64,000 nt of DNA, taken from IMG/VR virus record IMGVR_UViG_2974587864_000001, one strand, 5' to 3'. How positions within the stretch are numbered: position 1 is the stretch's first letter; every line of letters begins with the position of its first letter. The notes beneath the pieces are model-generated. The model did not search any database. It saw only the letters and a list, made by a program, of their open reading frames with translations, and was not told the origin of the DNA. The translations under genes were made by a program, and so were the position numbers. The stretch is from a virus (taxonomy: Duplodnaviria > Heunggongvirae > Uroviricota > Caudoviricetes > Straboviridae). Shown one piece after another: positions 31,722-38,249 of the stretch.

Positions 31722-32225
31722 ATGGCTACAGAAAAATGGACTACGGTACACCCGATCCCGTGGCGTAACACCAGCTTTACCTATTTGCCGTGGTGGATCT
31801 TTGATATCATCGTGGCTGCGAATGCTGCAAGCGAAGACTGGCGTGATTATGCCGAAGAAAAATACGCGAAAGAATTCGACACACTGAAACAGGCGTATAT
31901 TGATTACACTGATGTTGATTTCATCGAATCTCGTAACGGTTATCTGTATAAGCTGAGTGATTTTACTCCTGCTGATCCTGTCGTAACAATTACACCGAAA
32001 ACCGCTCCTGCTGATTTCAAAGTAGGTGATGCGGATCTGGCTGCAACTGATCTGTTTACCATCGATCCTTCTGGTACAGCAATGACTCTGAGTGTTGACT
32101 CTTCCGGTCATGGTTCTATCGTTGGTGGTAAACTTCATGCGGTTAGTGAAGGTGATGTTGTCGTAACAGCAACCTCTGGATCTGTTACTGCAACTCTGAC
32201 GGTAAACGTTAAAGCTGCTGCATAA
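31722..32225 (+). CDS. hoc: Hoc-like capsid decoration protein (capsid-binding domain first, Ig domain last)
   Basis: HPIPWR...LPWW...ESRNG Hoc motif in the N-half; beta-rich Big_2-like C-half. Confidence 0.75.
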   Translation: MATEKWTTVHPIPWRNTSFTYLPWWIFDIIVAANAASEDWRDYAEEKYAKEFDTLKQAYIDYTDVDFIESRNGYLYKLSDFTPADPVVTITPKTAPADFKVGDADLAATDLFTIDPSGTAMTLSVDSSGHGSIVGGKLHAVSEGDVVVTATSGSVTATLTVNVKAAA

Positions 32226-32245
32226 TAATAACTAAGAAGGTAAAA

Positions 32246-32746
32246 ATGCTACTATTTGAATTCAATGATGTATTCGCAAAATTCAGCGATGCGATCGAAG
32301 CCAAATTTGGCAAACGTCCTCAAAACATGACAGATGCAGAATATGAAGCTGCTGTATCGTCCCTGGTTCGTACAGATTTCTATGAAAAACTGGCGATCGA
32401 GGTGTTGGGTTGGGATATGATGAAATGGGGCATGACCTATCGCGATCGCGAAGTCGGTTTTATTCTCGTCAACGAAGCAAAAAGCCCGTCCTGGGTGAAT
32501 AGTCAAAAAATCGCGTACATGGATAAAGTATGCGCACAGATGGGTATTGTACGTTTAGACTTCTGGACTTGTCGGGATCTGAACGAACTGAAAGCCCACG
32601 CTTACCGTTGCCCTCTGATCTCCCGCAATGATAAGCATCGTCAAGCATGGGATAGCGCAGGGAAATATCGTAGTGTTTTCCTGAACGACGATATGAACAT
32701 CACTATTCAGGATGTGAACCGCTCCTTTGCGGATTACACACCATAA
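32246..32746 (+). CDS. Hypothetical protein
   Basis: 166-aa ORF with SD AAGG. Confidence 0.65.
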   Translation: MLLFEFNDVFAKFSDAIEAKFGKRPQNMTDAEYEAAVSSLVRTDFYEKLAIEVLGWDMMKWGMTYRDREVGFILVNEAKSPSWVNSQKIAYMDKVCAQMGIVRLDFWTCRDLNELKAHAYRCPLISRNDKHRQAWDSAGKYRSVFLNDDMNITIQDVNRSFADYTP

Positions 32747-32751
32747 ACAAA

Positions 32752-32780
32752 AAAGGGAACCGCAATGGTTCCCTTTCTTT
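32752..32780. terminator. Bidirectional terminator
   Basis: AAAGGGAACC-GCAAT-GGTTCCCTTT between convergent genes. Confidence 0.8.
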
Positions 32781-33247
32781 TATGCAATTTTTCTGATTTC
32801 TTTCAATGCTTCTTCTTTGCTACCAACGAAGAGAATCGCTTTACCTCCGGCTTTTCTGAATGGCAACACAGCTTTTGCCCTGTCATCAATCAGTATACCT
32901 TTGTCCGCATATGCTGCTTTCTCTCCGCTGCTTTTGGTGTAGTGGAATTCAGGCAGATAACCGAACACCTTCATCAACGCTTTTCTTTTTTGTTCTGCTA
33001 CCGCATCGGAATTGTATTTCCCTACGCTGGTTAAGATCGCAACCTGACCTAAAGTTCTCAAATGACAGAACAGGTCGATGCCCTCTTGTAATGGTTCCAG
33101 ATTTTCGTAGAAGTCAGTTTGTGATATAGCCTGTTTCGCTTTTTTCAATTCTTCTTCCGGCATTCTCGCCGGGTCTCCGTACATCGGAACAAAAGAACCT
33201 TCCCAGTTGAACAGTACACCATCCATATCGAACAAAAACTTTTTCAT
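32780..33247 (-). CDS. HAD 5'(3')-deoxyribonucleotidase-like protein
   Basis: FLFDMDGVL, ILTS, K..W-equivalent KRKAL, LIDDR; start reset to ATG 33247 (SD GAGGA). Confidence 0.75.
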   Translation of the reverse strand: MKKFLFDMDGVLFNWEGSFVPMYGDPARMPEEELKKAKQAISQTDFYENLEPLQEGIDLFCHLRTLGQVAILTSVGKYNSDAVAEQKRKALMKVFGYLPEFHYTKSSGEKAAYADKGILIDDRAKAVLPFRKAGGKAILFVGSKEEALKEIRKIA

Positions 33248-33271
33248 ATCAATTCCTCGGTTTGTGTGTGC

Positions 33272-33300
33272 ATCATATTCATATATGTTCCTATTGTCAA
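33272..33300 (-). promoter_or_regulatory. Early sigma70-type promoter for the HAD gene
   Basis: Minus strand TTGACA, 17 nt, TATGAT; the -35 overlaps the kinase TGA stop. Confidence 0.8.
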
Positions 33301-34130
33301 CCCCATGTATCAGTTTTCGGTGCGTATGCTGCAACTTTAGCCACTAACTCTTTATCAAGCTGGTCAATGGATTTTTGCGGCTTGCCTTTTGCCTTAACTT
33401 TGATGTAGTTAGACTTAACAACAAACATACCGCCTTTGTCAGATTTCTTGATTTCGCTGTCGATGCCTACTTTGTTGAAGCTGATCCAGATATCGCCGTC
33501 CATGTACTGTTTCAGAGAGTCGCCCATATTCAGGATCTTCGCCATAGTGAGCGCTGCCCCTTCGTGGGTATCCATGAGGATTTCTTTAGGCACAACACGA
33601 TCGCGTTTAAGGTTCTGTTGCATCGCAATATGAACATCGTTCATAACCCAAACGATATGGATGTTTTCTTTCTGATAACCCAGCGCTTCAACATCACGGG
33701 CGATACTTGCCAGCTTGCTCATGCTTTTCAGGGTTACGTCAAAGATCAGGTTTGGTTTACGATCTTCCGGTGCTGATGTGATACCCGCGTAAACACGCGC
33801 CTGGTTTTTGTTTGATACGTTGAACACGTCCGCGATCACATGATGCAGGGTTGCTACGTTGTCCGGGTTTTTCAGGTTCATTGTTTTGACATCGTGACCA
33901 GTTTTCGCTTTGATCTCTGCTGCCAGTTTGGTACTACCCATGACCAATTTTTTGAGTGCGTCAACGTCCAGGGTGATCCCTTCGATGCCTAACAGCTTTT
34001 CGAGGGTGAACCCTTTACCAGAACCCGCACCGCCAGCCAGGATAACTACCTGACCAAATTTAGGATAAGCCTTACCGCCGAAGGTGATCAGCGCTTCATC
34101 AAGGCTCGTAAAGTCTTTGAATGATTTCAT
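33297..34130 (-). CDS. P-loop kinase (zeta-toxin/AAA_33-like) with an internal-protein-like N-terminus
   Basis: VILAGGAGSGKG Walker A, DVD, LIFDVT Walker B, KRDRVVP lid; starts MKSFKDFTSLDEA. Confidence 0.7.
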   Translation of the reverse strand: MKSFKDFTSLDEALITFGGKAYPKFGQVVILAGGAGSGKGFTLEKLLGIEGITLDVDALKKLVMGSTKLAAEIKAKTGHDVKTMNLKNPDNVATLHHVIADVFNVSNKNQARVYAGITSAPEDRKPNLIFDVTLKSMSKLASIARDVEALGYQKENIHIVWVMNDVHIAMQQNLKRDRVVPKEILMDTHEGAALTMAKILNMGDSLKQYMDGDIWISFNKVGIDSEIKKSDKGGMFVVKSNYIKVKAKGKPQKSIDQLDKELVAKVAAYAPKTDTWG

Positions 34131-34158
34131 CTTAGAACTCCAGGTGTTTATTTAAAAG

Positions 34159-34193
34159 TATTTATTGACACGGTTTATGAGTGCGTTTATAGT
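34159..34193. promoter_or_regulatory. Divergent overlapping promoters: late AATAAATA (-) and early TTGACA-17-TATAGT (+)
   Basis: TATTTATT 34159-34166; TTGACA 34165-34170; TATAGT 34188-34193. Confidence 0.7.
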
Positions 34194-34244
34194 GCAATTG
34201 TTCGACGGATAAGCCGGAAGAACTTTAACCATAAGGTAACAATT

Positions 34245-35114
34245 ATGAAAAATGAACTGCATGAATTCATCAACGCCGCTGCTCTTGGCGACCAGTCAAA
34301 ATATAAATCCCGTCGCGATACCCTGATTGACGATTTCTGTAATCTCTTGGGGTTCAAGCGCTGGCATACCCCGTCTATGCGTCCAGATTGTGATCCAAAA
34401 TGGGATTACTTCAAATGGAGTGCTCGCGATCGTGGTTACGTCGATAACGTCCGCGTAATGTCTTTCAACCACTTATACGCAAATTCAACAATTGCTGTTG
34501 CTAAACGCAACGATTCGACTTATCCGAACGGGTGGAGTGTTGCTAAAGTCATAGAAACACTTCTTCAACTGCGTCGCGAATATAAATCAGCATACCGTGT
34601 CAATCCCAATCCTATCTATAATGAATGGCAAATCGTCGCGAAATACCTGCTGAACATCACCTATTCTATTTTCTGTCGCTTCGGGACAAAAGAGATTGGA
34701 TTTGGCTCTCATGATATAATTGCAGAAGCACGTCACCGCATGATCCATGCAATCCTGAAAATTCAAAACTCTGGTGGGCTTGTTCTTGCTGTGTTCTGTG
34801 ATGAAATTGTTTACTACGGAGAACAGGTCGAAGTTGATGATGTTCATCATGAAAAATTCAAAAGATTTGTATTCGGGCAATATAACAGCTATTCATATGG
34901 AAACGATATTCGTGTGATGATGCACCCGCGCATTATGTTGGATATGGAAGGGTGGGAACCAGGTCACGGAATTGGTGATGCCGAAAGCCAACGTGAACGC
35001 CGTGTTCGTTCAGTTGCTAAAACTCGCGAATTGATGACAGGTAGCCTTACTGATTACCTGTTCAGAACAAAAGAAGACGTTGAAAAAGAATTTGTTGACT
35101 TGTCGGGCGAATAG
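34245..35114 (+). CDS. Truncated, apparently inactivated family-B DNA polymerase palm/fingers protein
   Basis: GYVDNVRVMSFNHLYANS (motif A, Asp to Ser), QIVAKYLLNITY (motif B Q-x3-K-x3-N-x2-Y), VLAVFCDE (motif C, one Asp). Confidence 0.6.
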   Translation: MKNELHEFINAAALGDQSKYKSRRDTLIDDFCNLLGFKRWHTPSMRPDCDPKWDYFKWSARDRGYVDNVRVMSFNHLYANSTIAVAKRNDSTYPNGWSVAKVIETLLQLRREYKSAYRVNPNPIYNEWQIVAKYLLNITYSIFCRFGTKEIGFGSHDIIAEARHRMIHAILKIQNSGGLVLAVFCDEIVYYGEQVEVDDVHHEKFKRFVFGQYNSYSYGNDIRVMMHPRIMLDMEGWEPGHGIGDAESQRERRVRSVAKTRELMTGSLTDYLFRTKEDVEKEFVDLSGE

Positions 35115-35123
35115 CGATAAGCT
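35095..35123 (+). promoter_or_regulatory. Possible early promoter for the ART-like gene cluster
   Basis: TTGACT 35095-35100, 17 nt, TAAGCT 35118-35123. Confidence 0.45.
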
Positions 35124-35150
35124 GTAATCTCTGAAAACAAGGAGATAACC

Positions 35151-35468
35151 ATGAATACCATTCACTGCCGCAAAGAGTTCGTTGAGTTCTATCACGGATC
35201 ATGTACTGCTGCCGGAATCGAAAGCATGTTGTTGCCTCCTTGTGATTCTGATACTCTGTCTGAAAAAGGCAGAAAGAAAAATCTGGATCGTGTTTTCTTT
35301 ACTGCTGATATCGGGCTGGCTCGTATCTATGCTGGAAGGGCTGCACGTTCAATAGGTGGTGATCCGGTACTGTATCGGGTTGTGTGTCCGGTAGATGTGG
35401 TATGCATGAACGATGACAAAGGCGCAAGCGTTTATCATGCTGCATGGGCTTTCTGTGAGGAATTATGA
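35151..35468 (+). CDS. Small ADP-ribosyltransferase-fold protein (Arr/Tpt1-like)
   Basis: FYHGS...LLPP...RVFFT.D...A.IYA..A....G.PVLYRV pattern; strong SD AGGAG. Confidence 0.55.
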   Translation: MNTIHCRKEFVEFYHGSCTAAGIESMLLPPCDSDTLSEKGRKKNLDRVFFTADIGLARIYAGRAARSIGGDPVLYRVVCPVDVVCMNDDKGASVYHAAWAFCEEL

Positions 35469-35638
35469 AAGATAAGGTGTTAGCGTATCTCGTTTTCTTG
35501 CTGGGATATCGCGTTGAAGTGATGGGTGGTTATTCTTCTTTGTATGGAGATTTAACCGCGATCTGGATGGTTGCGTTGGGGGTTATGTTTACCTTTATGG
35601 CGATCTGTATTGCGAATGAGGCTGATCAAAATGCTTGA
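35465..35638 (+). CDS. 57-aa predicted membrane protein (not in the ORF track)
   Basis: Manual translation MKDKVLAYLVFLLGYRVEVMGGYSSLYGDLTAIWMVALGVMFTFMAICIANEADQNA*; ATGA overlap with the upstream stop. Confidence 0.6.
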   Translation: MKDKVLAYLVFLLGYRVEVMGGYSSLYGDLTAIWMVALGVMFTFMAICIANEADQNA

Positions 35639-35996
35639 ATTTTATCCTGCTGGTTGCAAGTCAAATCCGCCTGATGCATCGTTCCAATCGTGGATCTATT
35701 TCCATCGTGAACTAAACGACATCATCGAAAGTCAGTGGAAAGACCATCCTGAACGAAGTGCCCCCGATTTAGTCGATAGCGTAACAGATGTACGCACCCT
35801 GGAAAAAGGGCTGTATGATTGTCTGGTTCAGGGAATGGTGTGTAAATTGATTTTGTGGTATGCTCCGATCGGTTCAGATCTAACTCGCAAAATCGCCCGT
35901 GGCTATATCATGACGAAACGTGAGTTTGACCAGATCTGGAACGAACCCGACTGTTTCGAACGCGAAAAATACGAAAATGAGGTTAGTTGCATATGA
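35631..35996 (+). CDS. Hypothetical protein
   Basis: Start ATG 35631 overlaps the previous gene end (SD GAGG). Confidence 0.6.
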   Translation: MLEFYPAGCKSNPPDASFQSWIYFHRELNDIIESQWKDHPERSAPDLVDSVTDVRTLEKGLYDCLVQGMVCKLILWYAPIGSDLTRKIARGYIMTKREFDQIWNEPDCFEREKYENEVSCI

Positions 35997-36319
35997 AACT
36001 ATTTCATGTTGTGTATGGTGGGATGAAAAATATCGACATCGCCGCGTTATCTGCTGGGATGCTGGACGAACTCGAAGCACAGATCGGGAAACGATTCAAA
36101 GCCAGTATCACCGAAACGCAAACTTTGTTTGTCGATCACCCTGCGGATATGGAAAACCTTGTCAACACTCTGGATGATCTGATGATCCCGTGTGCTGATG
36201 GTTGGAACGAAGCATCCGGTGTTCATGTAGTTGTAACTTTTGTTCTTAAAAATGTTGACAGCAGAAATGCCGAAGTGTTAGAGTTTATTCGTAAAATTGA
36301 TTCTACTAAAGGAAAGTAA
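35993..36319 (+). CDS. Hypothetical protein
   Basis: ATGA coupling to the previous stop. Confidence 0.6.
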   Translation: MKLFHVVYGGMKNIDIAALSAGMLDELEAQIGKRFKASITETQTLFVDHPADMENLVNTLDDLMIPCADGWNEASGVHVVVTFVLKNVDSRNAEVLEFIRKIDSTKGK

Positions 36320-36321
36320 CT

Positions 36322-36666
36322 ATGAAAATCGTTCAGCGTAATATCAGCGAAGTTAGCCAGCAGGAAAAAGTACAGATTCATTTCAAATTCAATGATCTGA
36401 AACTGGGCTATGCACAGATCGCCCGTGAGCACATGCTCGATAACGGCGACATTTACGTGATTGTTCAGGAAATTGAGCGAATTCGTGCTTTCCGCGCAGA
36501 AAATCCAAAAGTGAAACATGTTCTGCGTCGTGTGTATATCAACAAACATCGTGAAGAACAGCGTAAACCTAAGACCAAAGCTAAACGCGATCCGCGTCCA
36601 GATAACAAACGTAAAGCAATCAACGGCGCTATGGCGCTGGCGTTCCAGGAAGCGGGTTTGGTGTAA
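36322..36666 (+). CDS. Hypothetical basic protein
   Basis: 114-aa ORF, SD AAGGA, K/R-rich C-half. Confidence 0.65.
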   Translation: MKIVQRNISEVSQQEKVQIHFKFNDLKLGYAQIAREHMLDNGDIYVIVQEIERIRAFRAENPKVKHVLRRVYINKHREEQRKPKTKAKRDPRPDNKRKAINGAMALAFQEAGLV

Positions 36667-36675
36667 GGGGTTTAT

Positions 36676-37203
36676 ATGTCTTCAATGATGAATCGCTGGT
36701 CGGGCGTGATAACTTCGACTATCAAAAAGGATTTGGTGAAGGTTGAAGCAAAACCAAAGCCAGTAGAACCGGAAAAAGTTCAAACTATGGTATCACCCGA
36801 TCCTGCTGAGTTAGAACACCGCCGCCGCGCAAAGCAAATTGAATTCGATCTGCGTGTCGCTCGTTCATACAACAGTAAAAACGATGATGCGCGTAACCGC
36901 AACCTTCAATTTGCTCTGACGTTAAGCGACTGGGCGAAGCTAATGAGTGAACCCGTATGTTCTTACTCCGGCAGACCGTTTAGCAACAAAGGCGGTTGCT
37001 CTGACTCCCGAACAATGGAACGAATCAACGCTTCTCTGGGATACACGGTTGAAAACACGATCGCAGTAACCAGCGCCGCGAATAGCGAGAAATCAAATCT
37101 CGATGCGTTTATGAAGGGTTCTGTGATCCTTCCAGAAGTAAAACTGAAACTGTTACGCAAAGCTGCGTATCAAATTGAAAAACAACTGAAAATCAAGGGT
37201 TAA
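36676..37203 (+). CDS. Srd-like protein (degenerate His-Me-finger-like domain)
   Basis: ARNRNLQFAL...VCSYSGRPFSN...ER.N...GY...N.IAV....N resembles recalled T4 Srd AKRRSKDFNL...VCAYSGEPFDN...ERFD...GY...NVIAV. Confidence 0.55.
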   Translation: MSSMMNRWSGVITSTIKKDLVKVEAKPKPVEPEKVQTMVSPDPAELEHRRRAKQIEFDLRVARSYNSKNDDARNRNLQFALTLSDWAKLMSEPVCSYSGRPFSNKGGCSDSRTMERINASLGYTVENTIAVTSAANSEKSNLDAFMKGSVILPEVKLKLLRKAAYQIEKQLKIKG

Positions 37204-37205
37204 TT

Positions 37206-38249
37206 ATGTTTGTGAAATATTCTTCTCTGACTAACCATTATGAAGGTAAATTCATCAATGGTGTGATCATGAATGGTTTGACTGGTGGCGTGTGGGTTGC
37301 GCGTGAAAAGATCCACGGGGCTAACTTTAGCCTGATTACTTCGGACGGTATCAAAGTCATTCCGGCAAAACGTAGCGGTGAAATCCTCCCTGCTGAACAA
37401 TTCTACGGTTGCGAACCCGTAGTTGCGAAATACTCCGAACCTGTTCGTAAGATGTGGGAAATGATCTCTACTGCGCGTCAGTTAAGCGGTGAGTATAGCG
37501 ATGAACTGGTGATCCAGGTATACGGCGAATTCGCGGGGCGTGGTGTACAGAAAGATGTTGACTACGGAGAAAAAGATTTCTACGTATTTGATATCCGTGT
37601 TAATGGCGAATTCCTCCCTGATAACGTTGTTGCAAATTACGCTGTTGCTGTTGGTCTGAAAATGGCTCCACTGCTGGCATACGGTACGTTTGACGAGATC
37701 CGCGCACTGCCTATCACCTTTGATTCGGTGGTTAACCTGGCGAACTCCGGTGCGATCCCTGCAAAGAACGGCGTTGAACCTGAGTTCAAAAACTTCATGA
37801 CGCTGAAAGATGGTGAAGGTGAGAACATCGCAGAAGGTTTCGTGATGAAGCCTGTTCAACCCGCTTTCATGCCGAACGGTGAACGCGTTGCAATCAAATG
37901 CAAAACGACGAAGTTCACAGAGAAGAAGAACAAGCAAGCGAACCGCTTCAATGCTCCTTCTGAACTGTCAGAAACAGACAAAGTGAAGCTGAACGAATTC
38001 ACCTGCTACCTGACTGAAAACCGCGTGAAAAACGTTCTGTCCAAAATTGACAGCGCGAATCTCACCGCTAAAGATTTCGGTCGCGTGATGGGGCTTACGG
38101 TACAGGACGCGCTGGAAGAAATCGAACGTAACTACGGGACTTTCCTGGAACAGTTCGAAAATCCAACGCTGGCGAAGAAAACCTTCACTAACGAAGCGTC
38201 AAATCTGGTTCGTGAGAACTGGGGCGCAATCCTGAACAATGAATTTTAA
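37206..38249 (+). CDS. rnlB: RNA ligase 2
   Basis: KYSSLTNHY, REKIHGANFS motif I, VYGEFAG, FYVFDI, AEGFVMKP, AIKCK. Confidence 0.93.
   Translation: MFVKYSSLTNHYEGKFINGVIMNGLTGGVWVAREKIHGANFSLITSDGIKVIPAKRSGEILPAEQFYGCEPVVAKYSEPVRKMWEMISTARQLSGEYSDELVIQVYGEFAGRGVQKDVDYGEKDFYVFDIRVNGEFLPDNVVANYAVAVGLKMAPLLAYGTFDEIRALPITFDSVVNLANSGAIPAKNGVEPEFKNFMTLKDGEGENIAEGFVMKPVQPAFMPNGERVAIKCKTTKFTEKKNKQANRFNAPSELSETDKVKLNEFTCYLTENRVKNVLSKIDSANLTAKDFGRVMGLTVQDALEEIERNYGTFLEQFENPTLAKKTFTNEASNLVRENWGAILNNEF

Follow-up and report, generated by a model that had tools for sequence, protein, structure and literature searches.

What does a phage do with a gene that has the outline of a DNA polymerase core and has lost the catalytic aspartate of motif A? 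The question is raised by a 289-residue open reading frame in a 64,000-nucleotide stretch of viral DNA (hereafter, the window), which comes from a T4-type phage of the genus Pseudotevenvirus and at this locus is 99% identical to Cronobacter phage GAP161. The protein falls into PHROG 7439 (E 1e-157), which is annotated as 'unknown function'; two GenBank submitters have named homologues 'DNA polymerase', and all other submitters have named them 'hypothetical'. From the letters alone, the original prediction had read the gene as an early-expressed, miniature family-B DNA polymerase (PolB) with dead catalytic motifs, serving as a replisome or primase adaptor, as a binder of nucleotides or DNA ends, or as a decoy for defence systems that sense phage polymerases. 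Here we address what the protein, which we call mini-PolB, is, how its gene varies among phages, and which of these functions the evidence favours.

Taken as a single sequence, mini-PolB matches nothing in Pfam or in the PDB, and a tektin match from a 15-sequence profile against the PDB was judged to be chance; PolB homology emerged only once 13 distant representatives had been included, in a profile of 32 sequences. With a word-indexed search, 14 homologues came up, the most distant at 39% identity; when 1.84 billion representatives were searched with a profile, no more than 23 proteins were recovered, with lengths of 223–318 residues, and those with a traced source all come from T4-like phages. 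Against the PDB, the 32-sequence profile gave 90 matches at E ≤ 10; the best 60 of these 90 are all family-B polymerases, and the first is Thermococcus gorgonarius Pol (Tgo; 1TGO) at E 3.8e-6. Likewise, PF00136 matches four of the 32 family members (best E 2.2e-6), and the NCBIfam matches of the family are exclusively to PolB families.

PolBs carry the consensus DxxSLYPS in motif A, Kx3Nx2YG in motif B, and YGDTDS in motif C. The strings that had suggested these motifs are found at residues 64–81, 129–140, and 158–190, with EKFKRF at residues 203–208; that the motif matches are not coincidental follows from the profile alignment, in which each of the three predicted motifs falls on its genuine PolB counterpart. 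The motif-A alignment spans Tgo 393–417 and pairs S73 with D404 and Y78 with Y409, while profile positions 104–197 align to Tgo 452–545—here R110 and K114 of the fingers pair with R460 and K464, K133 and N137 of motif B with K487 and N491, and D186 with D542, the second Asp of the motif-C DTD. The motif-A Asp is thus replaced by Ser, and the sole remaining motif-C Asp is the second, both as predicted. When the family profile was aligned by hhalign to the gp43 of a related phage (a single sequence), the probability was 2.3%, with the motif B-to-C segment aligned correctly, and against Phynn gp43 the profile gave an E of only 0.04. A recent gp43 duplication was considered and rejected; the profile prefers archaeal, Pol II, and Pol alpha types over T4-type gp43, and mini-PolB is nearer to the short-fingered archaeal/Pol II type than to the phage's own gp43.

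The predicted structure leads to the same family. An AlphaFold2 model built on the 32-sequence alignment has a mean pLDDT of 91.5 and a pTM of 0.87, and with this model the top 50 Foldseek matches in the PDB are all PolBs (E about 1e-7). In a VIA search, which is independent of Foldseek, the top seven matches are again all PolBs (Z 8.8–10.8; among them P. calidifontis, HSV-1 UL30, Pol alpha, phi29, and RB69), with alignments of 179–205 residues over model residues 6–229. ESM Atlas gives PolB matches at a TM of about 0.6 over 211–227 residues, and matches in AFDB clusters and BFVD agree with the PolB fold. Profile and structure searches therefore both find the PolB palm and fingers on which the original prediction depended: the gene encodes a stand-alone palm and fingers derivative of a family-B DNA polymerase.

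The features of the gene and its leader are collected in Table 1. ORF calling returned the predicted 289-residue frame, and the predicted absence of an exonuclease and of a full thumb is seen in the alignment as well; the PolB match covers residues 1–225, corresponding to Tgo about 350–616, so there is no N-terminal, exonuclease, or real thumb domain, and two C-terminal helices follow. In the model, residues 1–60 form the palm helices that lead up to motif A, the fingers are a short two-helix insert between motif A and motif C, and residues 155–219 form the remaining palm; in the profile alignment, S73 occupies the place of the catalytic Asp and Y78 that of the steric-gate Tyr. The C-terminal helices lie outside the range of most PolB matches, in an acidic segment (residues 226–289, pI 5.1), and may represent the stub of a thumb or serve for docking. 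Compared with Tgo Pol, P. calidifontis PolB (5MDN), E. coli Pol II (3K57), RB69 gp43 (3KD1), and phi29 Pol (1XHX), mini-PolB shares the palm with inserted two-helix fingers, the Lys and Asn of motif B, the upstream Arg/Lys of the fingers, the second motif-C Asp, and the steric-gate Tyr, with about 180–205 residues superposable. It differs in size (289 residues versus 570–1000), in the absence of N-terminal, exonuclease, and thumb domains, in the Ser at the motif-A Asp, and, in the window's lineage, in the loss of the first motif-C Asp.

Table 1. Features of the mini-PolB locus in the window (position 1 is the first letter of the window).
Feature	Position	Strand	Details
Early-type sigma70 promoter	34159..34193	+	AT-rich upstream stretch; -35 TTGACA at 34165-34170; 17-nt spacer; -10 TATAGT at 34188-34193
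5'-UTR hairpin	34200..34223	+	4-bp outer stem, 3-bp inner stem, 5-nt loop
Shine-Dalgarno AAGGT	34233..34237	+	7 nt 5' of ATG; read from sequence
mini-PolB coding sequence (P0001)	34245..35114	+	ORF call; 289 aa; PHROG 7439
Motif-A equivalent, residues 64-81	34434..34487	+	Strand 65-74 and helix 77-89 in model
Fingers, two helices, residues 99-146	34539..34682	+	R110, K114; motif B K133, N137, Y140
Motif-C hairpin, residues 179-191	34779..34817	+	Invariant D186, then E187
HHEK, residues 201-204	34845..34856	+	Strand after motif C; H201 near-invariant
C-terminal helix pair, residues 246-287	34980..35105	+	Model helices 246-272 and 276-287
ART-like gene, 105 aa	35151..35468	+	Immediately 3' of mini-PolB; context gene

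Residue conservation was counted over the 32 family members, some of which share only about 20% identity. K133 and D186 are present in all 32, followed by R110 (31/32), K114 and H201 (30/32 each), and N137 and Y/F140 (29/32 each); L106 is also near-invariant, and the Gly that follows the Tyr of motif B is Ser in mini-PolB. A survey of the motif-A position across homologues, which had been proposed as a check, found Ser or Thr at position 73 in 25 of the 32, Glu in one distant member (P0023), and Asp in none. At position 184, the place of the first motif-C Asp, the near family has Asn, Tyr, or Phe, whereas six of the 13 distant members keep Asp—two of these six with a full DTD, and P0023 combining its motif-A Glu with a D-x-D motif C. 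The pair D186-E187 occurs in 16 of the 19 near-family members, and across the whole family D186 alone is conserved among acidic residues.

In the ternary complexes of RB69 and KOD polymerases, the fingers Arg/Lys and the motif-B Lys and Asn grip the triphosphate of the incoming dNTP. PolBs studied to date become inactive when the motif-A Asp is lost; because mini-PolB has lost this Asp and is missing the thumb, we consider ordinary replicative or templated polymerisation very unlikely. The description of the motifs as dead is accurate to this extent, since the motif-A Asp is gone and one motif-C Asp is left, but it over-reads the sequence: the triphosphate-binding residues and D186 are among the most conserved positions of the family, and primer-independent PolBs (piPolBs) lack the first motif-C Asp and yet are active (PMC7544198). 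Mini-PolB would thus seem not to be a simple dead scaffold, and among the functions first proposed for it, that of a nucleotide binder fits the conservation pattern best.

We accordingly favour, with a probability of roughly 55%, the view that mini-PolB is a non-polymerising PolB remnant with a function of its nucleotide pocket, acting as a dispensable, host-tuned early accessory factor. The palm and fingers remnant would be made early from its own sigma70 promoter, probably together with the ART-like gene downstream, and may bind a nucleoside triphosphate or a related phosphorylated ligand; selection has preserved the residues that form the triphosphate pocket of real PolBs, namely R110, K114, K133, and N137, along with D186 and the sugar-facing Y78. 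The role of such a factor might lie in counter-defence or in nucleotide-pool handling. Against nucleotide binding, PolBs generally need a primer-template in order to bind free dNTP, and mini-PolB has no thumb with which to hold DNA; a nucleic-acid backbone or a protein might be the actual ligand of the conserved basic residues.

The same residues might also serve catalysis of another kind. As a minimal non-canonical nucleotidyltransferase, mini-PolB could add template-independent tails to DNA or RNA 3' ends, or nucleotidylate protein hydroxyls, possibly its own Ser73, and D186 together with E187 and/or H201 would then substitute for the motif-A Asp. Such an enzyme would account for the retention of the entire nucleotide-binding set with D186, for the D186-E187 pair of the near family, and for the preference for Ser/Thr at position 73; P0023 and the six distant members with D-x-D, the active piPolBs (PMC7544198), and the RNA-end and nucleotide enzymes among the neighbouring genes are in keeping with it. 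We nevertheless regard this activity as unlikely—only one acidic residue is conserved family-wide, the consequence of losing the motif-A Asp in other PolBs speaks against it, and there is neither a thumb nor any other domain to hold a substrate.

The leader of the gene bears on when the protein is made. The predicted near-consensus promoter (TTGACA-17-TATAGT) matched 11 of 12 positions in a consensus scan and was the top site of the region; its -35 hexamer and the AT-rich upstream block are kept in eight phage lineages, with TTGAC invariant and TTGACG in one lineage. Downstream of it, the sequence of the leader hairpin is kept across lineages whose coding sequences are merely 38–54% identical, with one compensatory pair (U-A to C-G), and the block AACCATAAGGT at the Shine-Dalgarno is invariant in all lineages compared. 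Judging from the promoter, mini-PolB is likely expressed early and from its own sigma70 site. The arrangement resembles the PeSL cassettes of T4-type phages, which are promoter-early stem-loop units whose recombination accounts for insertion, deletion, and replacement (Arbiol et al. 2010, PMC2839356); both place a variable accessory ORF of a hyperplastic region behind an AT-rich stretch, a sigma70 promoter, a stem-loop, and a Shine-Dalgarno. In contrast to the repeated PeSL motif, the mini-PolB stem-loop is found once within the 64-kb window, has no polyG/polyC stem, and lies inside the transcribed leader.

By tblastn, 171 phage records carry the near family; they include Pseudotevenvirus, Slopekvirus, and Phynn, and their hosts are Klebsiella, Enterobacter, Citrobacter, Cronobacter, and E. 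coli. A distant Aeromonas-phage member used as query added 92 further records, 46 of them matched over most of the query length; distant members are found in phages of Aeromonas (44RR, 25, and phiAS4 types) and of Vibrio, and in Stenotrophomonas phage IME13. A profile search of the T4 genome found no mini-PolB match and detected all four positive controls. In Pseudotevenvirus, Slopekvirus, Phynn, and an Aeromonas-type contig, the gene sits in the hyperplastic region between inh/hoc and gene 24.

Within this region mini-PolB is the most divergent gene of its neighbourhood, with a protein identity of 38–54% versus 89–99% for the neighbouring kinase. Relative to the window, the kinase, ART-like protein, and mini-PolB are respectively 98.6%, 92%, and 54% identical in CfP1, 97.8%, 90%, and 45% in RB16, and 90%, 94%, and 39% in Slopekvirus KLB21 (BLAST identities for mini-PolB are slightly below those of the allele comparison). 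Sliding DNA identity drops at the start codon and recovers at the stop codon, with flanks at 85–95%, and the motif-C hairpin is the sole stretch of the ORF that is about 82% identical in DNA to the CfP1 allele. Synonymous differences are saturated inside the block (pS 0.65–0.82) and lower in the flanks (0.35–0.6), from which it follows that the alleles are older than their flanks, a sign that cassettes have been exchanged and that rapid drift is not the simple explanation. Identities to the window protein also form separate classes, and the range from 60% to 80% is empty.

Among alleles of one type selection is purifying, with dN/dS of 0.078 for a pair at 91% identity and of 0.148 for one at 86%; values within allele types range over 0.08–0.40, with no sign of dN/dS above 1. 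Between allele classes dS is saturated, and the hypervariability may thus come from the swapping of old alleles and not from an ongoing arms race. On the basis of dN/dS and residue conservation, a pseudogene was rejected.

Mini-PolB is surrounded by accessory genes for the handling of nucleotides and NAD. On its upstream side, a divergent operon encodes a zeta-toxin-like P-loop kinase together with an NT5C-type HAD nucleotidase, with a second nucleotidase beyond it; downstream of the ART-like gene come small ORFs, a DUF2774 gene, an Srd-like/HNH gene, and RNA ligase 2. The ART-like gene directly follows mini-PolB in Pseudotevenvirus, Slopekvirus, Phynn, an Aeromonas-type T4-like contig, and IME13, and its product is 68–100% identical where mini-PolB is 30–54% identical. 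The pairing is frequent and not obligatory; the ART-like gene turns up in 605 phage records, and in many of these, from E. coli phages, the same search detected no mini-PolB. Adjacency in a hyperplastic region is in any case a weak sign of shared function.

A cassette of this kind, sharply delimited, hypervariable, and in discrete allele classes, could also encode a decoy for, or an inhibitor of, a host protein, for example a defence system that recognises PolB-type polymerases, and nucleotide binding would then be irrelevant. Promoter-based early expression, dispensability (see below), and an island shared with Srd-like and ART-like genes agree with this idea, and polymerase-sensing defence systems do exist—Borvo is one, although its escape mutations fall in the proofreading cleft of family-A polymerases (bioRxiv 10.1101/2022.08.27.505566), and the proofreading domain it targets is absent from mini-PolB. 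PADLOC gave no meaningful defence-system match and hence no link, the best-conserved residues are internal to the nucleotide pocket instead of forming a surface mimic, and dN/dS within an allele type nowhere rises above 1; a decoy is, in our estimate, improbable.

Close relatives provide natural experiments on whether the gene is needed. The nearest of the complete viral genomes compared (G002) is 96–98% identical to the window over 32200–34134 and 35093–37300, and in place of 34135–35092 it has 584 nt that encode an HNH_3 and AP2 protein, an ORF that terminates in the last codons of mini-PolB itself. The cultured E. coli phage UPEC03 carries a clean deletion of mini-PolB, and so, apparently, does Klebsiella phage iPHaGe-KPN-11i; a short GAT microhomology marks the joint, with the promoter plus the first half of the leader hairpin on one side and about the last 55 nt of the ORF on the other. 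Mini-PolB is therefore dispensable. In UPEC03 the retained early promoter directly precedes the ART-like gene, which suggests that the two genes are normally co-transcribed.

These losses weigh against the proposed replisome or primase adaptor, that is, a non-catalytic scaffold of the kind that herpesvirus UL8 and the C-terminal half of Pol epsilon represent. Precedent is on its side; inactivated PolB paralogues are mostly scaffolds (PMC7544198), HSV-1 UL8 is among the structural matches of the model (9ut1_C, Z 7.2 over 155 residues by VIA, with further UL8 rows in BFVD), and a partner could dock on the C-terminal helices and tail, which are conserved and acidic. The idea of a stable subunit on which a replication complex depends is weakened, however, for this gene is deleted in UPEC03 and replaced in G002, in genomes that are otherwise the same, and a homologue is undetected in T4. 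Furthermore, alleles only 38–54% identical are exchanged while the replication genes are core, the locus is a hyperplastic accessory region outside the replication module, and a pure scaffold is not expected to conserve a nucleotide pocket. UL8, which is reportedly an inactivated PolB in the helicase-primase according to Kazlauskas and Venclovas in 2014, shares with mini-PolB a viral origin and the lack of a canonical active site. It is, however, about 750 residues long, multi-domain in shape, and essential, and it has lost its nucleotide-binding motifs; mini-PolB is a dispensable palm and fingers that has kept the pocket. We find the adaptor role quite unlikely.

That mini-PolB is a decaying or selfish passenger without function for the phage is very improbable, for although it can be lost and is the most divergent gene around, its frame is intact in 171 records with dN/dS of 0.08–0.15, the same few pocket residues are retained down to about 20% identity, and its fold is predicted with high confidence.

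We return to the favoured reading, a PolB remnant with a function of its nucleotide pocket. Inactivated PolB derivatives are already known (UL8, the Pol epsilon C-terminal half, and PolB2; PMC7544198), and archaeal PolB2 (the B2/G2 group) and piPolB have a single conserved motif-C Asp, as mini-PolB does (PMC7544198); both are full length and keep the motif-A Asp, unlike mini-PolB, and PolB2 acts in translesion synthesis (PMC12926913). Our literature search found no description of a stand-alone palm and fingers mini-PolB family in T4-type phages, and the combination of such a protein with a conserved pocket and cassette-like variability appears to be new. Known inactivated polymerase paralogues are large, essential scaffolds; mini-PolB is a tiny, dispensable, fast-swapping fragment.

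The T4-type phages that carry mini-PolB are well studied and infect Klebsiella, Enterobacter, Cronobacter, E. coli, Aeromonas, and Vibrio, and several are candidates for phage therapy; natural deletions of the UPEC03 type and the allele classes offer ready material for a direct test. If nucleotide binding or transfer is true, mini-PolB would reveal a minimal functional PolB core and would point to a new accessory activity in phage-host conflict. Two bolder versions, which we hold to be speculative and rather unlikely, are that mini-PolB is a minimal active palm and fingers module, in which D186 with E187/H201 nucleotidylates a non-DNA acceptor, conceivably Ser73, or that it is a binder of or sponge for triphosphate nucleotides that blunts nucleotide-based host immunity; in both versions it would be paired with the ART-like protein. 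If an active module or sensor of this sort is true, mini-PolB would be the smallest functional PolB-derived module known and would open a new class of phage proteins for counter-defence or host takeover.

Mini-PolB, the 289-aa family-B polymerase remnant of the window, is missing or exchanged in related phages. In an otherwise near-identical phage genome (G002), the promoter and mini-PolB are swapped for a gene resembling homing endonucleases, with HNH_3 and AP2 domains, that is fused in frame to the final six codons of mini-PolB; its full-length form was found in no cultured phage of the collection searched. Escherichia phage UPEC03 has cleanly lost about 840 nt, nearly the entire ORF, and the leader hairpin is joined to the 3' end of the ORF at a GAT microhomology. 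The UPEC03 record shows the short remnant as an ORF on the minus strand and wrongly names the adjacent ART-like gene 'clamp loader subunit'. This small gene directly downstream of mini-PolB is highly conserved (605 records; 68-100% identity among Enterobacteria, Aeromonas, and Acinetobacter phages), and in E. coli Tevenvirinae-type phages it adjoins dmd rather than a mini-PolB.

Features of the mini-PolB locus and its counterparts
Feature	Location	Remarks
AT-rich block	window 34137-34170	minus strand; reads AATAAATA; invariant; upstream of -35
Leader hairpin	window 34200-34223	followed by AACCATAAGGT block
ART-like gene, 105 aa	window 35151-35468	
HNH_3 + AP2 homing-endonuclease-like gene	L022:3485-4045 (G002)	stands where window has 34135-35092
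'DNA polymerase' CDS as annotated	L002:3881-4912	Pantoea phage Phynn, MN038175.1
Deletion of mini-PolB	L023:2631-2806	Escherichia phage UPEC03, MW250785.1
Mini-PolB copy, 97% identical	G001:C10:37819-38685	one contig of bacterial assembly

The 97% identical copy lies in a bacterial assembly (4.2 Mb, 99% complete, 20 contigs) that probably includes a T4-like phage, either contaminating or carried. In Phynn, the CDS is annotated as beginning before the conserved promoter. Judging by the leader and SD, both conserved, the start codon should instead be the ATG at L002:3957, from which the protein is 318 aa, in agreement with the family member P0022.

The invariance of the AT-rich block may be explained by two promoters overlapping there. 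Its sequence reads as a late-promoter-like element, proposed in the original prediction for the divergent kinase gene upstream.

The leader hairpin and the block that follows it are far more conserved than the coding sequence downstream, even among alleles that are only 38-54% identical; one compensatory pair is seen, and the hairpin sequence occurs once within the window. The hairpin could be a translational operator, or it could serve as a recombination arm of a cassette like PeSL, the promoter-early stem-loop cassette of T4-type phages.
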